A DNA stretch of 7,136 nt, taken from positions 1 through 7,136 of the forward strand of contig JAHQXC010000067.1 of NCBI GenBank assembly GCA_029856525.1. Reading direction: 5' to 3'. Positions 1-7,136 of the stretch are shown piece after piece; within the stretch, counting starts at the first letter, position 1; the number at the start of each line of letters is the position of its first letter. A model generated the notes under the pieces. That model ran no database searches and was not told where the DNA came from. It worked only from the letters and a program-made list of their open reading frames with translations. Both the position numbers and the translations under genes were made by a program. The stretch is from Candidatus Odinarchaeia archaeon. GTDB taxonomy: Archaea > Asgardarchaeota > Odinarchaeia > Odinarchaeales > Odinarchaeaceae.

Positions 1-146
1 CAGAGCCATCTATGCTAGAGAAAAAATTTATGAGCTTGAAAACAGATATAATCGTTCCTTCAATTTCTCAGCTGATTTTAATAATCGAAGATATTAAAAT
101 TAAAGACGGCTGCGAGGTTTTAAAAAAATGCGAACCGCTGATTTGA
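1..146 (+). CDS. 3' end of upstream gene (partial), possibly a HAD-superfamily phosphatase
   Basis: Frame starting at base 3 is open to TGA at 144-146: EPSMLEKKFMSLKTDIIVPSISQLILIIEDIKIKDGCEVLKKCEPLI*. It overlaps the hisB start by 19 nt. 'TDIIVPSISQL' resembles the C-terminal 'ADxII.S..EL' segment of HAD hydrolases. Only 47 aa are visible, so the product call is weak. Confidence 0.4.
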   Translation, partial: EPSMLEKKFMSLKTDIIVPSISQLILIIEDIKIKDGCEVLKKCEPLI

Positions 147-700
147 AAAGAGTGACTAAAGAGACAAGTATTCAAGTTAAACTAAACCTCGACGGTAAAG
201 GTGTTTCAGAGATTAAAACACCTATCAGATTTCTCAATCATATGTTAGCCACGATATCTAAACATTCTCATATCGATTTAATCATCTCCGCTGAAGGCGA
301 TTCCCCTCATCACATAGCTGAAGATGTAGCTATCACCCTCGCTGAAGCTTTAAACAGTGCTTTAGGTGATAAAAAAGGAATTGAAAGATTCGGTGAAGCT
401 ACTATACCGATGGATGATGCTTTAGCCCAGGTCGCCTTAGACGTAGGCGGTAGGCCATATTATATTTTAAACCTTGAGTTTAAAAGAACTTCGATAGATG
501 ATATGGCTACAGAGGATATAATCCACTTTTTGAAAACATTCTCCGCTAACTTGAAAATCAATTTACACGCTAAAATCCTCTACGGTGAGAACGATCACCA
601 TAAGGTTGAAGCGCTGTTTAAAGCTCTCGCTGTTGCACTTAAAAGAGCGGTTAAATTAACAAATCTTGACGCTGTTCCAAGTACTAAAGGAGTGATTTAA
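128..700 (+). CDS. hisB: Imidazoleglycerol-phosphate dehydratase (monofunctional)
   Basis: Metal-binding motifs FLNHML, HHIAED and ENDHHKVEA; RTADLKRVTKET N-terminus; VPSTKG C-terminus; RBS GAGGT at 114-118. Confidence 0.97.
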   Translation: MRTADLKRVTKETSIQVKLNLDGKGVSEIKTPIRFLNHMLATISKHSHIDLIISAEGDSPHHIAEDVAITLAEALNSALGDKKGIERFGEATIPMDDALAQVALDVGGRPYYILNLEFKRTSIDDMATEDIIHFLKTFSANLKINLHAKILYGENDHHKVEALFKALAVALKRAVKLTNLDAVPSTKGVI

Positions 701-701
701 A

Positions 702-1313
702 CTGGTTGAAATCGCAGTAATCGACTATGGTTTAGGTAACCTGAGAAGCATATTCAACGCACTTAAAAAATCCGGCGCTGAGCCTATTATAACAAATGAG
801 AGTAGCCTGATAAAGAAAGCCGCCGCTATAATTTTACCAGGAGTTGGGGCTTTCAAAGACGCGATGATTAATATAAAAAATATTGAGAATCTATTAGTAG
901 AGGAAGTGTTAAACAGTAAGCCTGTCTTAGGGATCTGCCTTGGCCTCCAGTTAATGTTAACTGAAAGCATGGAGGGCGGGTTGAACAAGGGCTTGAATAT
1001 TTTTAAAGGTAAAGTTATCCGTCTACCTGAAACAGTGAAAACACCTCACATAGGCTGGAATACAATAAGACTTATAGATTCAGAGAACCCTATCGTAGAA
1101 GGCATAGAAGATAACAGTTACTTTTATTTCGTACACTCATATTACGCTACAGGATTGGATGCAAAGATTTTAATAGCTGAAACAGAGTATGGTATAAGAT
1201 TCCCATCTATTATAGGTATGAAAAACATTTTTGCAACTCAATTCCACCCTGAAAAATCAGGTGAAAACGGTTTAAAACTGATTAGCAACTTTATTAAATA
1301 TGTTAAAGGCTGA
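702..1313 (+). CDS. hisH: Imidazole glycerol phosphate synthase, glutamine amidotransferase subunit (203 aa, apparent CTG start)
   Basis: The frame of the 864 ORF extends upstream through (L)VEIAVIDYGLGNLRSIFNAL...ILPGVGAFKDAM, the conserved HisH N-terminus. The catalytic GICLG and FHPEKSG motifs are present. An in-frame TGA lies at 693-695, RBS AGGAGTGA at 688-695, and CTG at 702. Confidence 0.96.
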   Translation: MVEIAVIDYGLGNLRSIFNALKKSGAEPIITNESSLIKKAAAIILPGVGAFKDAMINIKNIENLLVEEVLNSKPVLGICLGLQLMLTESMEGGLNKGLNIFKGKVIRLPETVKTPHIGWNTIRLIDSENPIVEGIEDNSYFYFVHSYYATGLDAKILIAETEYGIRFPSIIGMKNIFATQFHPEKSGENGLKLISNFIKYVKG

Positions 1314-1319
1314 TCTGCT

Positions 1320-2039
1320 TTGAAGATTATCCCCGCTGTTGATATTCAAAAAGGTAGAGTTGTTAGATTATATCAGGGTAAAGCTGAAACAGCTAAAGAA
1401 TACTATTCTGACCCTGTAAAAACCGCTAAACTATTCGAAGAAGAGGGTGCTGAAATAATACATGTAGTGGACTTGGATGCAGCTATGGGAAAAGGTGATA
1501 ACATTGATATTATAATTAAAATAGCTGAAGAAGTCAATTCCGAGATTCAAGTCGGCGGTGGGATAAGAACACTGGAAAAAGCTGTGAAATTTTTAAACAG
1601 GGGTATTAAGCGTGTAGTCTTAGGAACAGCTTTCTTCGATGATAAAAGTCTACCTGAGTACTTAATTAAAGAATATGGTAAAGACAGAGTTGTCGCAGCT
1701 GTAGACCACTATAAATATGAAGTTAGAATAAAAGGCTGGCTTCAATCCACTAAGATAAATCTTTTAAATTATATTAAAATAATAGAGGAGATTGGACCCG
1801 GATTCATACTCTTATCTTCGATTGAAGCAGATGGAACGATGAGAGGTCCTGATATAGATACGATAGAAAAAGTTATAGAATATGTGAAAACACCTTTAAT
1901 AATAGCTGGAGGCGTAAGATCACTTAACGATCTAGTATCACTTAAAAAACTTCAACCATACGGTGTGATTGTCGGTCGAGCTTTCTATGAAAAATCTTTC
2001 ACACTTTCAGAGGCTGTTAAAATTATAGGAGGGGATTAA
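1320..2039 (+). CDS. hisA: ProFAR isomerase
   Basis: KIIPAVD..GRVVRLYQG, HVVDLD, QVGGGIR and IIAGGV (beta/alpha)8 motifs; TTG start; RBS-like AGGCTGA at 1307-1313. Confidence 0.96.
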   Translation: MKIIPAVDIQKGRVVRLYQGKAETAKEYYSDPVKTAKLFEEEGAEIIHVVDLDAAMGKGDNIDIIIKIAEEVNSEIQVGGGIRTLEKAVKFLNRGIKRVVLGTAFFDDKSLPEYLIKEYGKDRVVAAVDHYKYEVRIKGWLQSTKINLLNYIKIIEEIGPGFILLSSIEADGTMRGPDIDTIEKVIEYVKTPLIIAGGVRSLNDLVSLKKLQPYGVIVGRAFYEKSFTLSEAVKIIGGD

Positions 2040-2042
2040 AAA

Positions 2043-3194
2043 TTGATAGAGAGAGATGAAATATTAAAAATAGTAGGCGAGTATGATAAAAATAATCTGA
2101 AAATAGGCTGCCTCGGTTCACATTCAGCCCTCGATATAGCAGACGGTGCTAAAGACGAAGGGTTTACAACATATGTCTGGTGTCAGAAAGGCAGGGATGC
2201 GCCTTACACGCGTTTTTTTAAATCAGTCTACTATAATAATAGGTTAGTCAAAGGATGCGTTGACCACCCTATACTATTAGATTCATTTAAAGATGTTCTT
2301 AAATATGATAAAATGATTCGCGAGAACAGTATTCTATGGATTCCGAACAGATCCTTTGTAACTTATTGTGGAATAGAAAACGTGGAAAATAATTTTAAAG
2401 TACCATATGTAGGAAGTAGAAACCTTTTAAGATTAGAGGAGAGAGAGGAAAGGCAAAATTATTATTGGCTGTGTGAAAAAGCAGGTCTGCCTATACCTAG
2501 AAAAATGGAACCCGATCAAATAGACCGGCTTACAATAGTTAAACTACACCACGCTAAAATGAAGCTTGAAAGAGGATTCTTCACGTGCGCGAGTTCGAAG
2601 GAATTCGAAGAAAAGTCTAAAGCGCTTATAAAACAAGGCGTGATAACCGAATCAGATCTTGAAAAAGCACGGATAGAAGAATATATAATAGGCCCGGTCT
2701 TCAACTTCAACTTCTTCTATTCACCTGTATCAGAGAAAATAGGCGAGGAGCCTTTGGAACTACTCGGCATAGATTGGAGGTTCGAATCCTCCTTAGACGG
2801 TTTTGTAAGGATACCAGCCGAACAGCAGCTCACACTCCCTGAATCTCAAAAATATCCGATAATGACAGTGGTAGGTCATAACAGCTGTTCACTGCGGGAA
2901 AGTATTTTAAATAATATATTTCCAATAGCTGAAAAATTTGTTAAAATAACAAAGGAATACTATAAACCTGGTATGATAGGATCCTTCTGCCTGCAAACAG
3001 TGATTACAAGCGAGATGAAACCTGTGATATATGATATCGCTACGAGAACAGGCGGTGGCACAAACGCTCATATGTGGCTGGGCGCACCTTACGGTAACAT
3101 AGTATGGCGTTCTAGAATGTCATCCGGTCGGCGTGTAGCATTAGAGATTAAAAGAGCTGTAGAGCATGATCTTCTCGAGTACATTGTCACCTGA
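2043..3194 (+). CDS. purP: PurP-family ATP-grasp protein (FAICAR synthetase-like, formate/ATP-dependent); probably the PurP-like paralog
   Basis: LGSHSALDIADGAKDEGF, ERGFF, RIEEYIIG, RFESSLDG, GSFCLQ, GGGTN and GRRVALEIK match the archaeal PurP family. TTG start with RBS AGGAGGGG at 2027-2034. Family assignment is strong; the exact activity is uncertain. Confidence 0.88.
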   Translation: MIERDEILKIVGEYDKNNLKIGCLGSHSALDIADGAKDEGFTTYVWCQKGRDAPYTRFFKSVYYNNRLVKGCVDHPILLDSFKDVLKYDKMIRENSILWIPNRSFVTYCGIENVENNFKVPYVGSRNLLRLEEREERQNYYWLCEKAGLPIPRKMEPDQIDRLTIVKLHHAKMKLERGFFTCASSKEFEEKSKALIKQGVITESDLEKARIEEYIIGPVFNFNFFYSPVSEKIGEEPLELLGIDWRFESSLDGFVRIPAEQQLTLPESQKYPIMTVVGHNSCSLRESILNNIFPIAEKFVKITKEYYKPGMIGSFCLQTVITSEMKPVIYDIATRTGGGTNAHMWLGAPYGNIVWRSRMSSGRRVALEIKRAVEHDLLEYIVT

Positions 3195-3206
3195 AAGGTG
3201 GACTGA

Positions 3207-4019
3207 TTGCTAGCTAAACGTATAATCCCCTGCCTTGATATGAAAGACGGGAAAGTTGTAAAAGGAGTCCAGTTTACTAACTTAAAGGAGGCGGGGGATC
3301 CTCCTAGCCTAGCGGAAATATACGATAACCAGGGGGCTGATGAAATAGTTTTTCTAGATGTCACAGCGTCACATGAGAAAAGGGATATTCTAATAGACGT
3401 GGTTAGAAGAACAGCGGATAGAATATTCATTCCATTCACGGTCGGGGGTGGTTTAAACTCTGTTAAATCAATCGGTGAAATTCTCAGAGCCGGCGCTGAC
3501 AAGGTTTCAATCAACACAGCTGCGATTAAAAATCCAGATCTGGTGAGAGAAGCGGCTGAAAAATTCGGAAGTCAGTGTATAGTTGTAGCTATCGATGCTA
3601 AAAGAGTCTACGTAGAGAGTATCGATGATCACAGCGACCATATATACGTCCAGACTCCTAACGGGATATGCTGGTGGGAGGCTTATATATACGGTGGTAG
3701 ACAGCCAACCGGAGTCGACGCATTGAAATGGGCTAAAAGAGTTGAAGAGCTGGGGGCTGGAGAAATATTGTTAACAAGCATGGATTGCGACGGCGTCCAG
3801 CAAGGCTATGACATAGAGCTTACAAGAGCCGCTTCCAGGCTTTTAAAAATTCCTGTAATAGCTTCAGGCGGAGCTGGTAAACCAGAGCATATATTAGAAG
3901 TCTTCACTAAAGGTAAAGCGGACGCAGCTTTAGCAGCCTCTATATTCCATTATAACCAGTATACTGTAAAAGATATAAAAAATTTTCTCGCAGCTAACGG
4001 CGTAGTAGTCCGACTTTGA
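3207..4019 (+). CDS. hisF: Imidazole glycerol phosphate synthase cyclase subunit
   Basis: [50 protein letters not shown] and ALAASIFH motifs; TTG start; RBS AGGTGG at 3196-3201. Confidence 0.98.
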
Positions 4020-4027
4020 ATCTTTAT

Positions 4028-4435
4028 AAACTTCACCGCGGGAAGACTATCTGTTTTAAGCTTTGGAAAATTGCGTTTTCCGTCATTATTATTCACGTCG
4101 TCAATTACTTTTTAATTAAATCGGAGCACAGCTACATGGAAAAATCTAAATACCGGTCTCGCATCCCTCTAGCTATTGTAAACGAGGTATTAGCATCAAA
4201 GCAATGCTGGGGATGCAATTCAACGAAAACAGCTGTTAGAAAGAGTATATTCAAGTGTAGAGACTGTGCATTAGAATACAATCGAGATCTAACCGGCAGC
4301 GTGAATATAGGTAGCAGATCCTCGGCTATACGCTGAAGTGTAGAGCTGATTTGAACAGCCTCAAATCCCCTCAGTATACTTGTTAACTGCTCAATATGTG
4401 AGGGCGAACCCCGTCTTTAGAAACGGGTGGTTCCC
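4028..4435 (+). mobile_element. Decayed non-autonomous IS200/IS605-family remnant (tnpB 3' end plus right-end hairpin); boundaries approximate
   Basis: Contains a TnpB C-terminal fragment, followed by GAGCTGATTTGAACAGCC and the hairpin GAACCCCGTCTTTAGAAACGGGTGGTTC (4406-4433), which resembles IS605/IS1341-group right ends. It sits in an otherwise tightly packed operon. Confidence 0.75.
4136..4336 (+). pseudogene. tnpB: tnpB C-terminal fragment (zinc ribbon plus RuvC-III)
   Basis: IPLAIVNEVLASKQCWGC...FKCRDCALEYNRDLTGSVNIGSR aligns with the TnpB pattern GIPV..V.P..TS..C..C...F.C..CG...DRD.NAA.NI. RuvC-I, RuvC-II and the REC/WED regions are not recognisable. The first ~40 aa of the 4016 ORF are not TnpB-like. 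Confidence 0.8.
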
Positions 4436-4452
4436 AGAAAATGGTGTTGAAT

Positions 4453-4872
4453 ATGATTATCGATGAAGCTGTTGCTAATAAAATCGTGGAAGAGATAAAC
4501 TTTAATAAAATGAACGGGCTTATACCGGTTGTCGTTCAAGATATCGCGGATAACCAGGTATTAATGGTTGCATTCGCTGATAAGAATGCTGTTATTAAAT
4601 CGCTTACAACAGGTTTCACTCATTTTTATAGTAGAAGTAGAAGGAAGATATGGAGAAAAGGAGAGACAAGCGGGCATACTCAAAAAATAATAGAAGTCTA
4701 CTTGGATTGTGATAATGACACTATACTCTTCAAAGTCGATCAGAACATAGCCGCCTGTCATACAGGTTACCGTTCATGCTTTTATAAGAAACTATCTGAG
4801 AAAGGGGAATGGAGTGTTACCGGAGCTAAATTATTCGAACCAAGTCAAGTATACGAGAAAACGGAGGAATAA
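4453..4872 (+). CDS. hisI: Phosphoribosyl-AMP cyclohydrolase (stand-alone, no HisE fusion)
   Basis: GLIPVVVQD, FYSRSRRKIWRKGETSGH, DCDND and ACHTGYRSCF motifs. ATG 4453 is preferred because GGTG at 4443-4446 precedes it; ATG 4441, GTG 4444 and TTG 4447 are in-frame alternatives. Confidence 0.97.
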   Translation: MIIDEAVANKIVEEINFNKMNGLIPVVVQDIADNQVLMVAFADKNAVIKSLTTGFTHFYSRSRRKIWRKGETSGHTQKIIEVYLDCDNDTILFKVDQNIAACHTGYRSCFYKKLSEKGEWSVTGAKLFEPSQVYEKTEE

Positions 4873-4980: not shown

Positions 4981-5931
4981 TTGCAAGAAAATATAACAGT
5001 GCAAGATAATAAGAGTAAAGAGGACTTACAGTATATAAGCAAGTTTTCAGAGTATTTAAAGAGAGGAGCGACCTCAAAAGTCCTCTATCTTGTAAAAGAA
5101 TTATTAACTCACATAACTCAAGTATGCGTCGAATGTGAAAGCGATAGAATAAGATGCATGCTCAGACCGATGTGCGGTAAAAGCAGACCATACTTATCTA
5201 TAAGATTAGAGTTAGGTTATAGAATCGAGGAGCTCCCTCAATTCTGTTTACAGCAGCATCTGAACTATTTCCGCAATTTTTTGAAGGGTAAAGTTAAAGG
5301 AAGCGTGTTTAAAGACGTTAAAATCACCATAAGCCAGCTGTTAATGTTACTAGACGATATAAAACCTTTATCTATTTATATACCGCCGATAGATCAGAGT
5401 GAAGAAATTTTCAAAATTATTTTAAACATCGTGAAAAAGATTATCCCAGAAGCGGAGATCTATCATGGGAATATACATAGTTATATCAGTGTTTTCGGAT
5501 CGCTTATTCACATAGACTTGAAAAGCGGAATGGTTAATCTTAACCCTTCAGATGAACCTTTAACTTCACCTGACGAGTTGAAAACACTTGTAGAAATTTA
5601 CTCGAAAATATATAATATTAAAGTTGAAATAATAGAGGAAATGTACGGGTTCTGGTACCTCGACTTTTTCGTTAAAAAACTTGAACCAGGGAAAGCTTTA
5701 GAGAAAGAGGAAATGGATACGCTAAGAGTTTTTAGAAAAAAACTAGAAGAGTACTCTAACTATGCAACCTTCTCCATAATTGAAGACGAACTTCACTGCA
5801 TAGTGGATATTCCTACACCCGGTAAAAACGATGTGAGTAGAATGCTGACACCCGGAGTAATACACGCCTTCTTCAAAATAATCGCAGATTATACAAGAAT
5901 TTCCAAAGAAGAATCAGGTGAAAATAACTGA
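4981..5931 (+). CDS. Hypothetical protein, 316 aa, with N-terminal Cys cluster (possible metal binding)
   Basis: Long ORF with TTG start and RBS AGGAG at 4969-4973; an in-frame stop lies at 4945-4947. Contains C-x2-C-x6-C-x5-C-x23-C. I recognise no family. Confidence 0.85.
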   Translation: MQENITVQDNKSKEDLQYISKFSEYLKRGATSKVLYLVKELLTHITQVCVECESDRIRCMLRPMCGKSRPYLSIRLELGYRIEELPQFCLQQHLNYFRNFLKGKVKGSVFKDVKITISQLLMLLDDIKPLSIYIPPIDQSEEIFKIILNIVKKIIPEAEIYHGNIHSYISVFGSLIHIDLKSGMVNLNPSDEPLTSPDELKTLVEIYSKIYNIKVEIIEEMYGFWYLDFFVKKLEPGKALEKEEMDTLRVFRKKLEEYSNYATFSIIEDELHCIVDIPTPGKNDVSRMLTPGVIHAFFKIIADYTRISKEESGENN

Positions 5932-6030: not shown

Positions 6031-7136
6031 ATGGCTTTAGAAAAGGAGACTCTTTCTAAACTACTAGTTGATACATTGAACTTATCTGAACTTGAAGCTA
6101 AGGTATATTCCACTCTCCTCCTTTTAGGCCAGTTAACTGTAAGCGAGATAGCTGTGTATTCTGAATTGGATATAACTCAAATACAAAAGATTCTTGATAA
6201 GTTAATTGGAAACACTCTCGTCAAAGAAATACCTGGGATAATTCCACGCTACCAAGCTAACCCCCCTTATAAGCCTCTAATGGTTTACCTTGAAAAATTT
6301 AATGAGATAATTAAGGAAACTGATGCGAGTATCTCAGATTCTATTAAAAAATCTCTTAAAGAATATAAAAATCAATTAGCTGCCTGGAAGGCGAAAATAA
6401 ATCAGGCTGTTGATAAAGAAGTAAGCACGGTCACCTCTTCACTATCTAATTTTACCGGTGAGGCGACCGTTACTCTAACGGAAAGTTTAGAGAATATTAA
6501 AGCCACACTGGATGAGAGAGTGAGTAAAGTCTTCTCTGAAGCAGATTCACTAGTCTCTAGTATTATAGAAGATTTACTTCAAAAATTAAATCAGAATTTA
6601 ATCCAAATACAAGAAGATATCAATACACAGAAGACTAAGCTTTTAAAATTAATAGAGGAAAACAGTGAATCTATTAAAAATCAGAGCACCCTACTAAAAA
6701 GCAAACACATTGAAGTTCTAAAAGAATCTAAACAAAATTTCATCAACGCTATAAATAAAAATTATTCAGCGATCAAAGAATTACTGAAAGATCAATTAGA
6801 AGCTTTGACAAAAATTCTAGAAGATTTGAGAACAGCAACCGCTGATAATCTCGTAAACACCGTTAACTCTATAAGCGGGTTATTAGATGAAGCTGGCTCG
6901 AGAATAAAAACTTCTCTCACATCTTTCAAAGAGCAAGCTTCAAGTCAACTATTAAAATTTAATGAAGATTTTAACAGTGTATTAGATGAATCTGAGAAAA
7001 TACTAGCCGACTCCATACATTCAGCTAGCCAAGATATTACTTTAACAATTGAAACAATAAAATCTGATATAAAACAAACGCTAGAATCATTAAACACGTA
7101 TATTTTAAATTCTCTAAATGAACTTTCAAATAATAA
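6031..7136 (+). CDS. TrmB-type winged-helix protein with long hendecad coiled coil (3'-partial, at least 368 aa)
   Basis: Open from ATG 6031 to the window edge. LNLSELEAKVYSTLLLLGQLTVSEIA...LVKEIPGIIPRYQANPP matches the TrmB N-terminal wHTH pattern (LS.YEAKVY..LL..G..T.SEIA...Y.A.PP). The remainder is helical and amphipathic. Confidence 0.88.
   Translation, partial: MALEKETLSKLLVDTLNLSELEAKVYSTLLLLGQLTVSEIAVYSELDITQIQKILDKLIGNTLVKEIPGIIPRYQANPPYKPLMVYLEKFNEIIKETDASISDSIKKSLKEYKNQLAAWKAKINQAVDKEVSTVTSSLSNFTGEATVTLTESLENIKATLDERVSKVFSEADSLVSSIIEDLLQKLNQNLIQIQEDINTQKTKLLKLIEENSESIKNQSTLLKSKHIEVLKESKQNFINAINKNYSAIKELLKDQLEALTKILEDLRTATADNLVNTVNSISGLLDEAGSRIKTSLTSFKEQASSQLLKFNEDFNSVLDESEKILADSIHSASQDITLTIETIKSDIKQTLESLNTYILNSLNELSNN
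6277..7134 (+). repeat. 26 consecutive 11-aa (33-bp) degenerate protein repeats
   Basis: Residues 83-368 divide exactly into 26 x 11 with mostly hydrophobic residues at positions 1, 5 and 8, e.g. LTESLENIKAT / LDERVSKVFSE ... ITLTIETIKSD / IKQTLESLNTY / ILNSLNELSNN. Confidence 0.8.

Follow-up and report, generated by a model that had tools for sequence, protein, structure and literature searches.

A cluster II PurP-family gene between hisA and hisF in the histidine operon of one Odinarchaeal genus: a candidate outlet for by-product AICAR

Analysis of a 7,136-nt contig of a Candidatus Odinarchaeia archaeon (hereafter the window; it spans contig C121 completely, within an assembly of 1.32 Mb that is 93% complete) revealed a histidine biosynthesis operon in which a gene of the PurP family of ATP-grasp proteins separates hisA from hisF (Table 1). 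Spacers of 3 nt (hisA to PurP gene) and 12 nt (PurP gene to hisF) join the three genes on the forward strand, and inspection of the open reading frame table and the sequence confirmed this geometry, including the ribosome-binding site inside the 3' end of hisA, as described in the initial annotation. The TTG start of the PurP gene appears sound, since its residue 1 aligns with residue 1 of Methanocaldococcus jannaschii PurP and an ATG occupies the position in two sister genomes. The gene shares its strand with the his genes, has no room for a promoter or terminator on either side and keeps its placement in relatives, from which we infer that it is co-transcribed with hisA and hisF; its translation is probably coupled to that of the neighbouring his genes. 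An Rfam search of the window returned no match.

Table 1. Features of the window; positions refer to the forward strand.
Feature	Position	Strand	Evidence and remarks
hisB (imidazoleglycerol-phosphate dehydratase)	128..700	+	Pfam IGPD 9.9e-55; NCBIfam HisB 252 bits, above cut-off
hisH (glutaminase subunit of IGP synthase), probable CTG start at 702	702..1313	+	TIGR01855 161 bits for the part from 864
hisA (ProFAR isomerase)	1320..2039, stop TAA 2037-2039	+	TIGR00007 248.5 bits, above cut-off
Shine-Dalgarno-like AGGAGGGG within the hisA 3' end, 8 nt 5' of the PurP start	2027..2034	+	sequence
Cluster II ('PurP III') PurP-family ATP-grasp gene, 383 aa	2043..3194, start TTG, stop TGA 3192-3194	+	Pfam DUF1246 and DUF1297
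Shine-Dalgarno-like AAGGTGG in the 12-nt spacer 5' of hisF	3195..3201	+	sequence
hisF (cyclase subunit of IGP synthase)	3207..4019, start TTG	+	TIGR00735 392.6 bits, above cut-off
TnpB remnant	4016-4336	+	C-terminal TnpB/Cas12f-like fragment, 106 aa, Pfam Cas12f1-like_TNB 5e-08
hisI (PR-AMP cyclohydrolase), last recognisable his gene of the operon	4441..4872	+	NF000768 163.9 bits, above cut-off
316-aa gene 3' of hisI	4981-5931	+	no family match
Start of a giant TrmB-like coiled-coil gene	6031-7134	+	1028 aa in sister genome

The upstream part of the operon is seen on a long contig of a sister genome, where the genes follow the order hisG-hisD-hisC-[HAD hydrolase, 409 aa]-hisB-hisH-hisA-[PurP-like]-hisF-hisI. 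The HAD-superfamily hydrolase between hisC and hisB (L024:2877-4106) is a candidate histidinol-phosphate phosphatase; its sequence shows no relationship to that of the HAD-like gene in the pur operon described below. The hisH frame, which carries a conserved IAVIDYG motif, is open from 696 (in-frame stop 693-695) and contains no ATG, GTG or TTG before 864; all four junctions compared across the genus keep the CTG at 702, which lies 1 nt past the hisB stop and 9 nt past the GGAG (689-692) of an AAGGAG site. In this genome only, approximately 420 nt of extra DNA including the TnpB/Cas12f-like fragment lie between hisF and hisI (4016-4440), where the sister genomes have 10-30 nt, and seven further contigs carry sequences 75-84% identical to the 3' 100-125 nt of the insert (about 4296-4420), which fits the terminal or guide-RNA segment of a decayed IS200/605-type element. 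The insert may break co-transcription of hisI. Searches of Pfam, NCBIfam and Atlas with the conserved 316-aa gene 3' of hisI (4981-5931) retrieved no match.

Both PurP domains were recovered above the gathering score in the 383-aa protein (PF06849, DUF1246, 133 bits, 5.6e-39; PF06973, DUF1297, 243 bits, 2.9e-72), and residues 1-382 gave a full-length match to the M. jannaschii enzyme MJ0136 (PDB 2r7k; 3.4e-79, 270 bits), with a further match to PDB 2r84 (1.4e-52). As judged from the sequence, this identity to solved PurPs already fixes the predicted fold. Among the NCBIfam models only those for PurP matched the protein, all six of them below their cut-offs (best NF009780, 333 bits against a cut-off of 556), and the PurT model gave no match. 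Brown 2011 (PMC3261824) distinguished a cluster II of PurP proteins by the replacement of Asn258 by His and by a P-loop that is two residues longer and has lost its glycines; this cluster equals PurP III of Zhang 2008 and GBE 2019. The window protein shows both features, with His279 in the context VVGH279N and the loop V166-K-L-H-H-A-K-M-K-L-E-R-G-F-F180, which contains one glycine. Its orthologues have both as well, and across a motif table of 86 sequences the two features go together, except that L014 and L015 have the long loop together with Asn. A tree of 85 proteins (quick IQ-TREE, LG+G4), the groups of which were labelled from the best BLAST hit and motifs, with named reference sequences not among its rows, separated 63 II-like from 22 Ib-like rows at 100% SH-aLRT and placed the window protein on the cluster II side. 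Here it nests within its genus (100), then with the sister Odinarchaeal family (99) and then with other Asgards, which implies vertical descent of the gene within Asgards; the stem branch of the genus (0.18) is similar in length to that of the sister lineage (0.14). The initial annotation had assigned the protein to the PurP-like paralogue group rather than to the M. jannaschii type on the basis of four signatures, all of which are present (HSALD, PNRSF, HAKMKLERGFF and GGGTNAHM), and the cluster II features and the tree bear out this assignment. By its sequence, the window gene is a cluster II (PurP III) PurP-family paralogue, an ordinary member of a known and ancient subgroup.

Alignment with MJ0136, using the ligand contacts as cited by Brown 2011, revealed that the formate contacts His27 and Arg335 (His27 and Arg314 in MJ0136) and the AICAR 5'-phosphate contacts Ser104 and Ser287 (Ser94 and Ser266) are kept in the window protein, as is the ATP-grasp Lys167. 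Conservation of H27 and R335 reaches at least 95% in each of the two clusters. On the same basis, the AICAR-carboxamide contact Asn258 of MJ0136 corresponds to His279, and the glycine-rich P-loop (K/R)GG(K/R)G is missing. Thirteen positions are fixed differently between the two types, and eight of them (D31, N102, R103, H170, E176, H279, G337 and G338) adjoin ligand contacts. This pattern looks like a remodelled active site rather than a decayed one, and the substrate or the reaction may differ, since the carboxamide contact has changed from Asn to His and the loop covering ATP has been rebuilt. The class-specific residues of the window protein are the same as those of orthologues located outside his operons.

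Comparison across the class Odinarchaeia, represented in our collection by seven species genomes (four of this genus and three of another family), showed that the order hisH-hisA-PurP-hisF-hisI is kept in all four species genomes of the genus, which removes the concern, raised with the initial annotation, that the arrangement might be a one-off rearrangement of this genome. The closest named records to the window are Candidatus Odinarchaeota MAGs (90% and 94% identity), and the two named Odinarchaeota MAG contigs with the same order add no species, because their PurP protein is identical to those of the genus genomes G001 and G003. Both junctions and their Shine-Dalgarno-like sites are conserved across the genus, with spacers of 1-15 nt, an AGGAGG at the same place 5' of the PurP start in every genome, an AAGGTG or AAGGTT 5' of hisF, and an ATG or TTG start codon of the PurP gene at the same position. 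The PurP-like protein is the best conserved of the operon, its sequences being 90-94% identical within the genus, compared with 72-89% for HisH, HisA, HisF and HisI. The insertion is stable, having outlasted divergence to 72% HisA identity.

In the loci searched outside the genus the linkage is absent. In the three Odinarchaeia of the other family, the orthologue (72-74% identity) lies between an MBL hydrolase and an MtrH-like gene, and searches of these genomes for HisF and HisA found neither. A survey of 46 cluster II loci from Thermoplasmatota, Heimdallarchaeota, methanogen-like and other archaea detected no his genes within about 6 kb, or up to the contig end where this was nearer; orthologues outside the genus sit beside purM, the Ib paralogue or unrelated genes. 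In all nine other Asgard genomes in which both genes were located, hisA abuts hisF. Confinement of the order to one genus, together with the adjacency of hisA and hisF in other Asgards, indicates that the insertion is derived and genus-specific. Recent horizontal transfer as its source was rejected, because the PurP gene (0.39) and the his genes (0.35-0.44) match the genome as a whole (0.385) in GC content, and the tree shows vertical descent within Asgards. A search for the ancestral donor locus via the neighbours in the sister family (MBL hydrolase, small ORF, MtrH-like gene) gave only weak matches of 25-36% identity, scattered through the window's genome, and defined no such locus. In the literature searched, we found no description of purP or any other AICAR-consuming gene inside a his operon, and the architecture reported here, a cluster II purP within a his operon, is new.

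A second purP, the presence of which the initial annotation had raised as a question together with that of purH and purO, was located in the window's genome between purM and guaA (C36:925-2019, 364 aa). This only other family member belongs to cluster Ib, carries the cluster I versions of the class-specific motifs (GN; AKGG-RGYF) and is more similar to MJ0136 (414 bits) than the window protein is (270 bits). In the closed, 98%-complete sister genome G002, the Ib gene forms part of a 13-gene pur operon with the order purC-S-Q-L-F-D-[HAD-like]-[PfkB kinase]-purE-B-M-PurP(Ib)-guaA; purF, purC and purM were also found in the window's genome. Searches of the window's genome and the closed sister genome for PurH, PurO, PurN, PurT and PurK detected none of them, and neither PurH nor PurO was found across the Odinarchaeia. 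Likewise, PurN (PF00551) and PurT (TIGR01142) were not found in the seven Odinarchaeia or in the Asgard genomes G012, G017, G027 and G028. A hidden PurT in the window's genome was rejected, as the PurT-like matches comprised only carbamoyl-phosphate synthase and an MfnD-like ligase, and the PurP locus was not returned. The Odinarchaeal genomes, in which no PurN, PurT, PurH or PurO is recognisable, would leave up to three purine steps without an assigned enzyme.

Two further gene types recur around these loci. A PfkB/ribokinase-like kinase is paired with a distant HAD-like protein (approximately 360-390 aa) both in the G002 pur operon (L086:7428-9453) and at the purine gene cluster of G017 (L087:12129-14276), a distant Asgard lineage; the two HAD-like proteins are 24% identical, and no PurN, PurT, PurH or PurO is recognisable in either lineage. 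In about 18 methanogen-like loci (e.g. L035:7148-8569), the gene directly 3' of the cluster II PurP encodes an FAD-dependent protein of approximately 460 aa (Pyr_redox_2 / HI0933-like / FAD-depend_C), and a protein of the same type adjoins purM-PurP in G017 (L087:10010-11404). As a partner of the cluster II protein studied here it was rejected, because the orthologue (G000 C8:3991-5361, 54-58% identity) is located on another contig among unrelated genes, away from pur and his genes.

To place these observations in a wider context, 41 Asgard genomes were surveyed. PurP-family genes occur in 22 of the 41, with two PurP genes in 18 and cluster II only in four. PurH was detected in ten genomes and never together with a second, Ib-type PurP (0/41), while neither PurO nor PurT was detected in any of the 41. 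A PurN-like gene is carried by 17 genomes, among them ten of the 22 PurP carriers, in some cases beside the PurP pair. HisF likewise occurs in 17 genomes, including nine PurP carriers, and carriage of PurP and HisF does not track each other (9 both, 13 PurP only, 8 HisF only). Two of the genomes with cluster II only, G017 and G027 (closed, 2.8 Mb), encode their single PurP gene beside purM (G017:C1:22429-23610 and G027:C1:20076-21257) and carry purF, purC, purM and purE; searches of both for an Ib PurP, PurH, PurO, PurN, PurT and the his pathway found none. A full-length PurH accompanies cluster II in G007 and G018. According to PMC6486802, clusters Ib and II always co-occur and every archaeon studied that carries Ib also carries II, which led to the proposal of a heterohexamer. 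G017 and G027 contradict this rule of co-occurrence, and genomes with cluster II only are new. They suggest that cluster II can function by itself in purine synthesis, and an obligatory Ib-II heterohexamer becomes less likely, given that some Asgards carry cluster II without Ib, PurH or PurO.

HisH and HisF release one AICAR for each histidine made. The reading that we favour, at a probability of roughly 55%, is that a cluster II PurP was relocated into the his operon, where it would process AICAR toward IMP while co-expressed with HisFH. In the ancestor of one Odinarchaeal genus, a vertically inherited cluster II gene would have been inserted in the his operon at the exact boundary of hisA and hisF, and would now be transcribed with the genes of the AICAR-releasing HisH/HisF step. 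Its product would carry out ATP-dependent processing of AICAR toward IMP, by formylation with formate to FAICAR and possibly with help in ring closure, and so feed by-product AICAR back into the purine pool at the pace of histidine synthesis; expression of the cluster Ib paralogue would come from the pur operon. We infer AICAR as the substrate and read the protein as an ATP-dependent AICAR-processing enzyme because of its ATP-grasp core, its formate and ribotide-phosphate contacts, the family's context at the last purine steps and the AICAR-releasing operon in which it is encoded. FAICAR synthesis is its probable activity, with a possible part in closing the ring. An attractive split of tasks, in which Ib serves the de novo flux and II the histidine by-product, is less likely than not. 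The initial annotation had proposed that this paralogue disposes of histidine-derived AICAR, and the subtype, the operon placement, the second purP and the conservation of the locus all speak for that proposal; a dedication to histidine-derived AICAR is more doubtful, as the linkage is found in one genus and 13 of the 22 PurP-carrying Asgards have no detected HisF. For the same reasons, and in view of the other gene contexts, general purine synthesis is likely the primary role of the cluster II family, with the his position late and local. The linkage hints, as an independent pointer from a single lineage, at AICAR, and does not settle the reaction.

The position might also have little meaning beyond constitutive co-expression. 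If the protein were a general purine enzyme working with Ib, either in a hetero-oligomer or in consecutive steps, its relocation could have been neutral, which we consider unlikely and nevertheless the strongest competing account. The linkage occurs in one genus only and might persist because removal of a gene from an operon is hard; all class-specific residues agree with those of orthologues outside his operons, the genus stem branch (0.18) is similar to that of the sister lineage (0.14), and Ib was always accompanied by II in the archaea studied previously (PMC6486802). Against this stand the precision of the insertion, with its Shine-Dalgarno-like sites and 1-15 nt spacers and its survival to 72% HisA identity in four of four species, the choice of an insertion point adjoining the sole his step that releases a purine intermediate, and the cluster II-only genomes, which indicate that pairing with Ib is not required. 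If both paralogues had to act together, expression from the his operon would give no independent recycling route, which counts against the preferred reading. A stronger claim, that cluster II is a self-sufficient enzyme of the end of purine synthesis, capable of formate-dependent AICAR formylation and perhaps of ring closure to IMP, can be offered only as a speculative and unlikely proposal. We consider it improbable that cluster II is instead the missing IMP cyclohydrolase or an ATP-dependent cyclase, with Ib formylating AICAR and II closing FAICAR to IMP, the new His serving as base. This idea, raised by Brown 2011 (PMC3261824), would agree with the failure to find PurO or PurH in Odinarchaeia, the non-overlap of two-PurP and PurH genomes among the 41 Asgards and the His at the carboxamide contact Asn258 in all cluster II proteins except L014 and L015. 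It is difficult to reconcile with G017 and G027, in which cluster II stands alone and any other known AICAR formyltransferase is missing, with G007 and G018, where cluster II is kept alongside a full-length PurH, and with an imperfect published pattern, in which Methanosarcinales, Archaeoglobi and some Thermococci have Ib, II and a known cyclohydrolase.

Even less probable is a role as a formate-dependent GAR formyltransferase, i.e. a PurT analogue. The gap left by PurN and PurT in the seven Odinarchaeia, G012, G017, G027 and G028, and an active site that keeps the formate contacts while changing the AICAR-carboxamide contact, would suit such an enzyme; yet it would have no reason to reside in a his operon, ten PurP-carrying Asgards already possess a PurN-like gene, in some cases beside the PurP pair, and PurN or PurT is found in the majority of published cluster II carriers, while archaea without both often have no cluster II. 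The least likely rival, to which we give almost no weight, is recruitment to histidine synthesis itself, for example as a stand-in for an undetected HisE (PR-ATP pyrophosphohydrolase). PRA-PH (HisE, PF01503) was sought in G000-G003 and MazG (PF03819) in G000 and the closed G002, with no match in these genus genomes, and a fused hisIE lies directly 3' of hisF in three other Asgards. However, ATP-grasp chemistry yields ADP and phosphate via an acyl-phosphate and releases no pyrophosphate, the sequence has not changed relative to orthologues in genomes without the his pathway, and the HAD hydrolase of the operon and the 316-aa gene after hisI are better candidates.

Since 2008-2011, it has been asked what the second PurP paralogue does and which protein serves as IMP cyclohydrolase in many archaea (PMC3261824, PMC6797443, PMC6486802). 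Earlier gene context linked cluster II to pur genes only, and here the gene adjoins those for the sole AICAR-producing reaction outside the purine pathway, a position that points to AICAR, or the compound formed directly from it, as the ligand. If cluster II proved self-sufficient, it would supply a long-sought activity in archaea without PurH and PurO (Crenarchaeota, Thaumarchaeota and many Asgards), the genomic evidence being the Odinarchaeal his-operon copy and the closed cluster II-only Asgards; if the position reflects neutral relocation, it would be a minor curiosity of operon evolution. The Ib and II proteins represent a compact, thermophile-derived pair suited to assay.

Comparison with characterised systems places the window protein close to M. 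jannaschii PurP (MJ0136; PDB 2r7k-2r7n), a FAICAR synthetase of cluster Ia (PurP I), with which it shares full-length homology, the two Pfam domains, the formate and AICAR-phosphate contacts and the ATP-grasp lysine. In contrast to MJ0136, it has His for Asn258, Asn-Arg for His92-Gly93, the loop HHAKMKLERG for (K/R)GG(K/R)G and extra insertions. The His at position 258 and the longer, glycine-poor loop are shared with Pyrococcus furiosus PF0421 and other cluster II proteins; PF0421, the sole cluster II protein assayed, is reported in Brown 2011 (PMC3261824, citing Zhang 2008) and PMC6486802 to have no FAICAR synthetase activity. As in Crenarchaeota and Thaumarchaeota, an Ib gene is encoded in the same genome and PurH and PurO were not found here, whereas the window gene differs in position, lying within a his operon and not next to pur genes or to the Ib paralogue. 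PurH (AICAR transformylase / IMP cyclohydrolase), for which no example inside a his operon is known from the literature searched, would serve the same need of converting histidine-derived AICAR into IMP, and its genomes do not overlap with the two-PurP genomes in the Asgard sample; it differs in its unrelated fold and its folate cofactor. The operon itself follows canonical compact his operons (hisG-D-C-B-H-A-F-I/E) in gene order and tight packing, and departs from them in that hisE was not found, a 409-aa HAD hydrolase lies between hisC and hisB, and a purine gene splits hisA from hisF.
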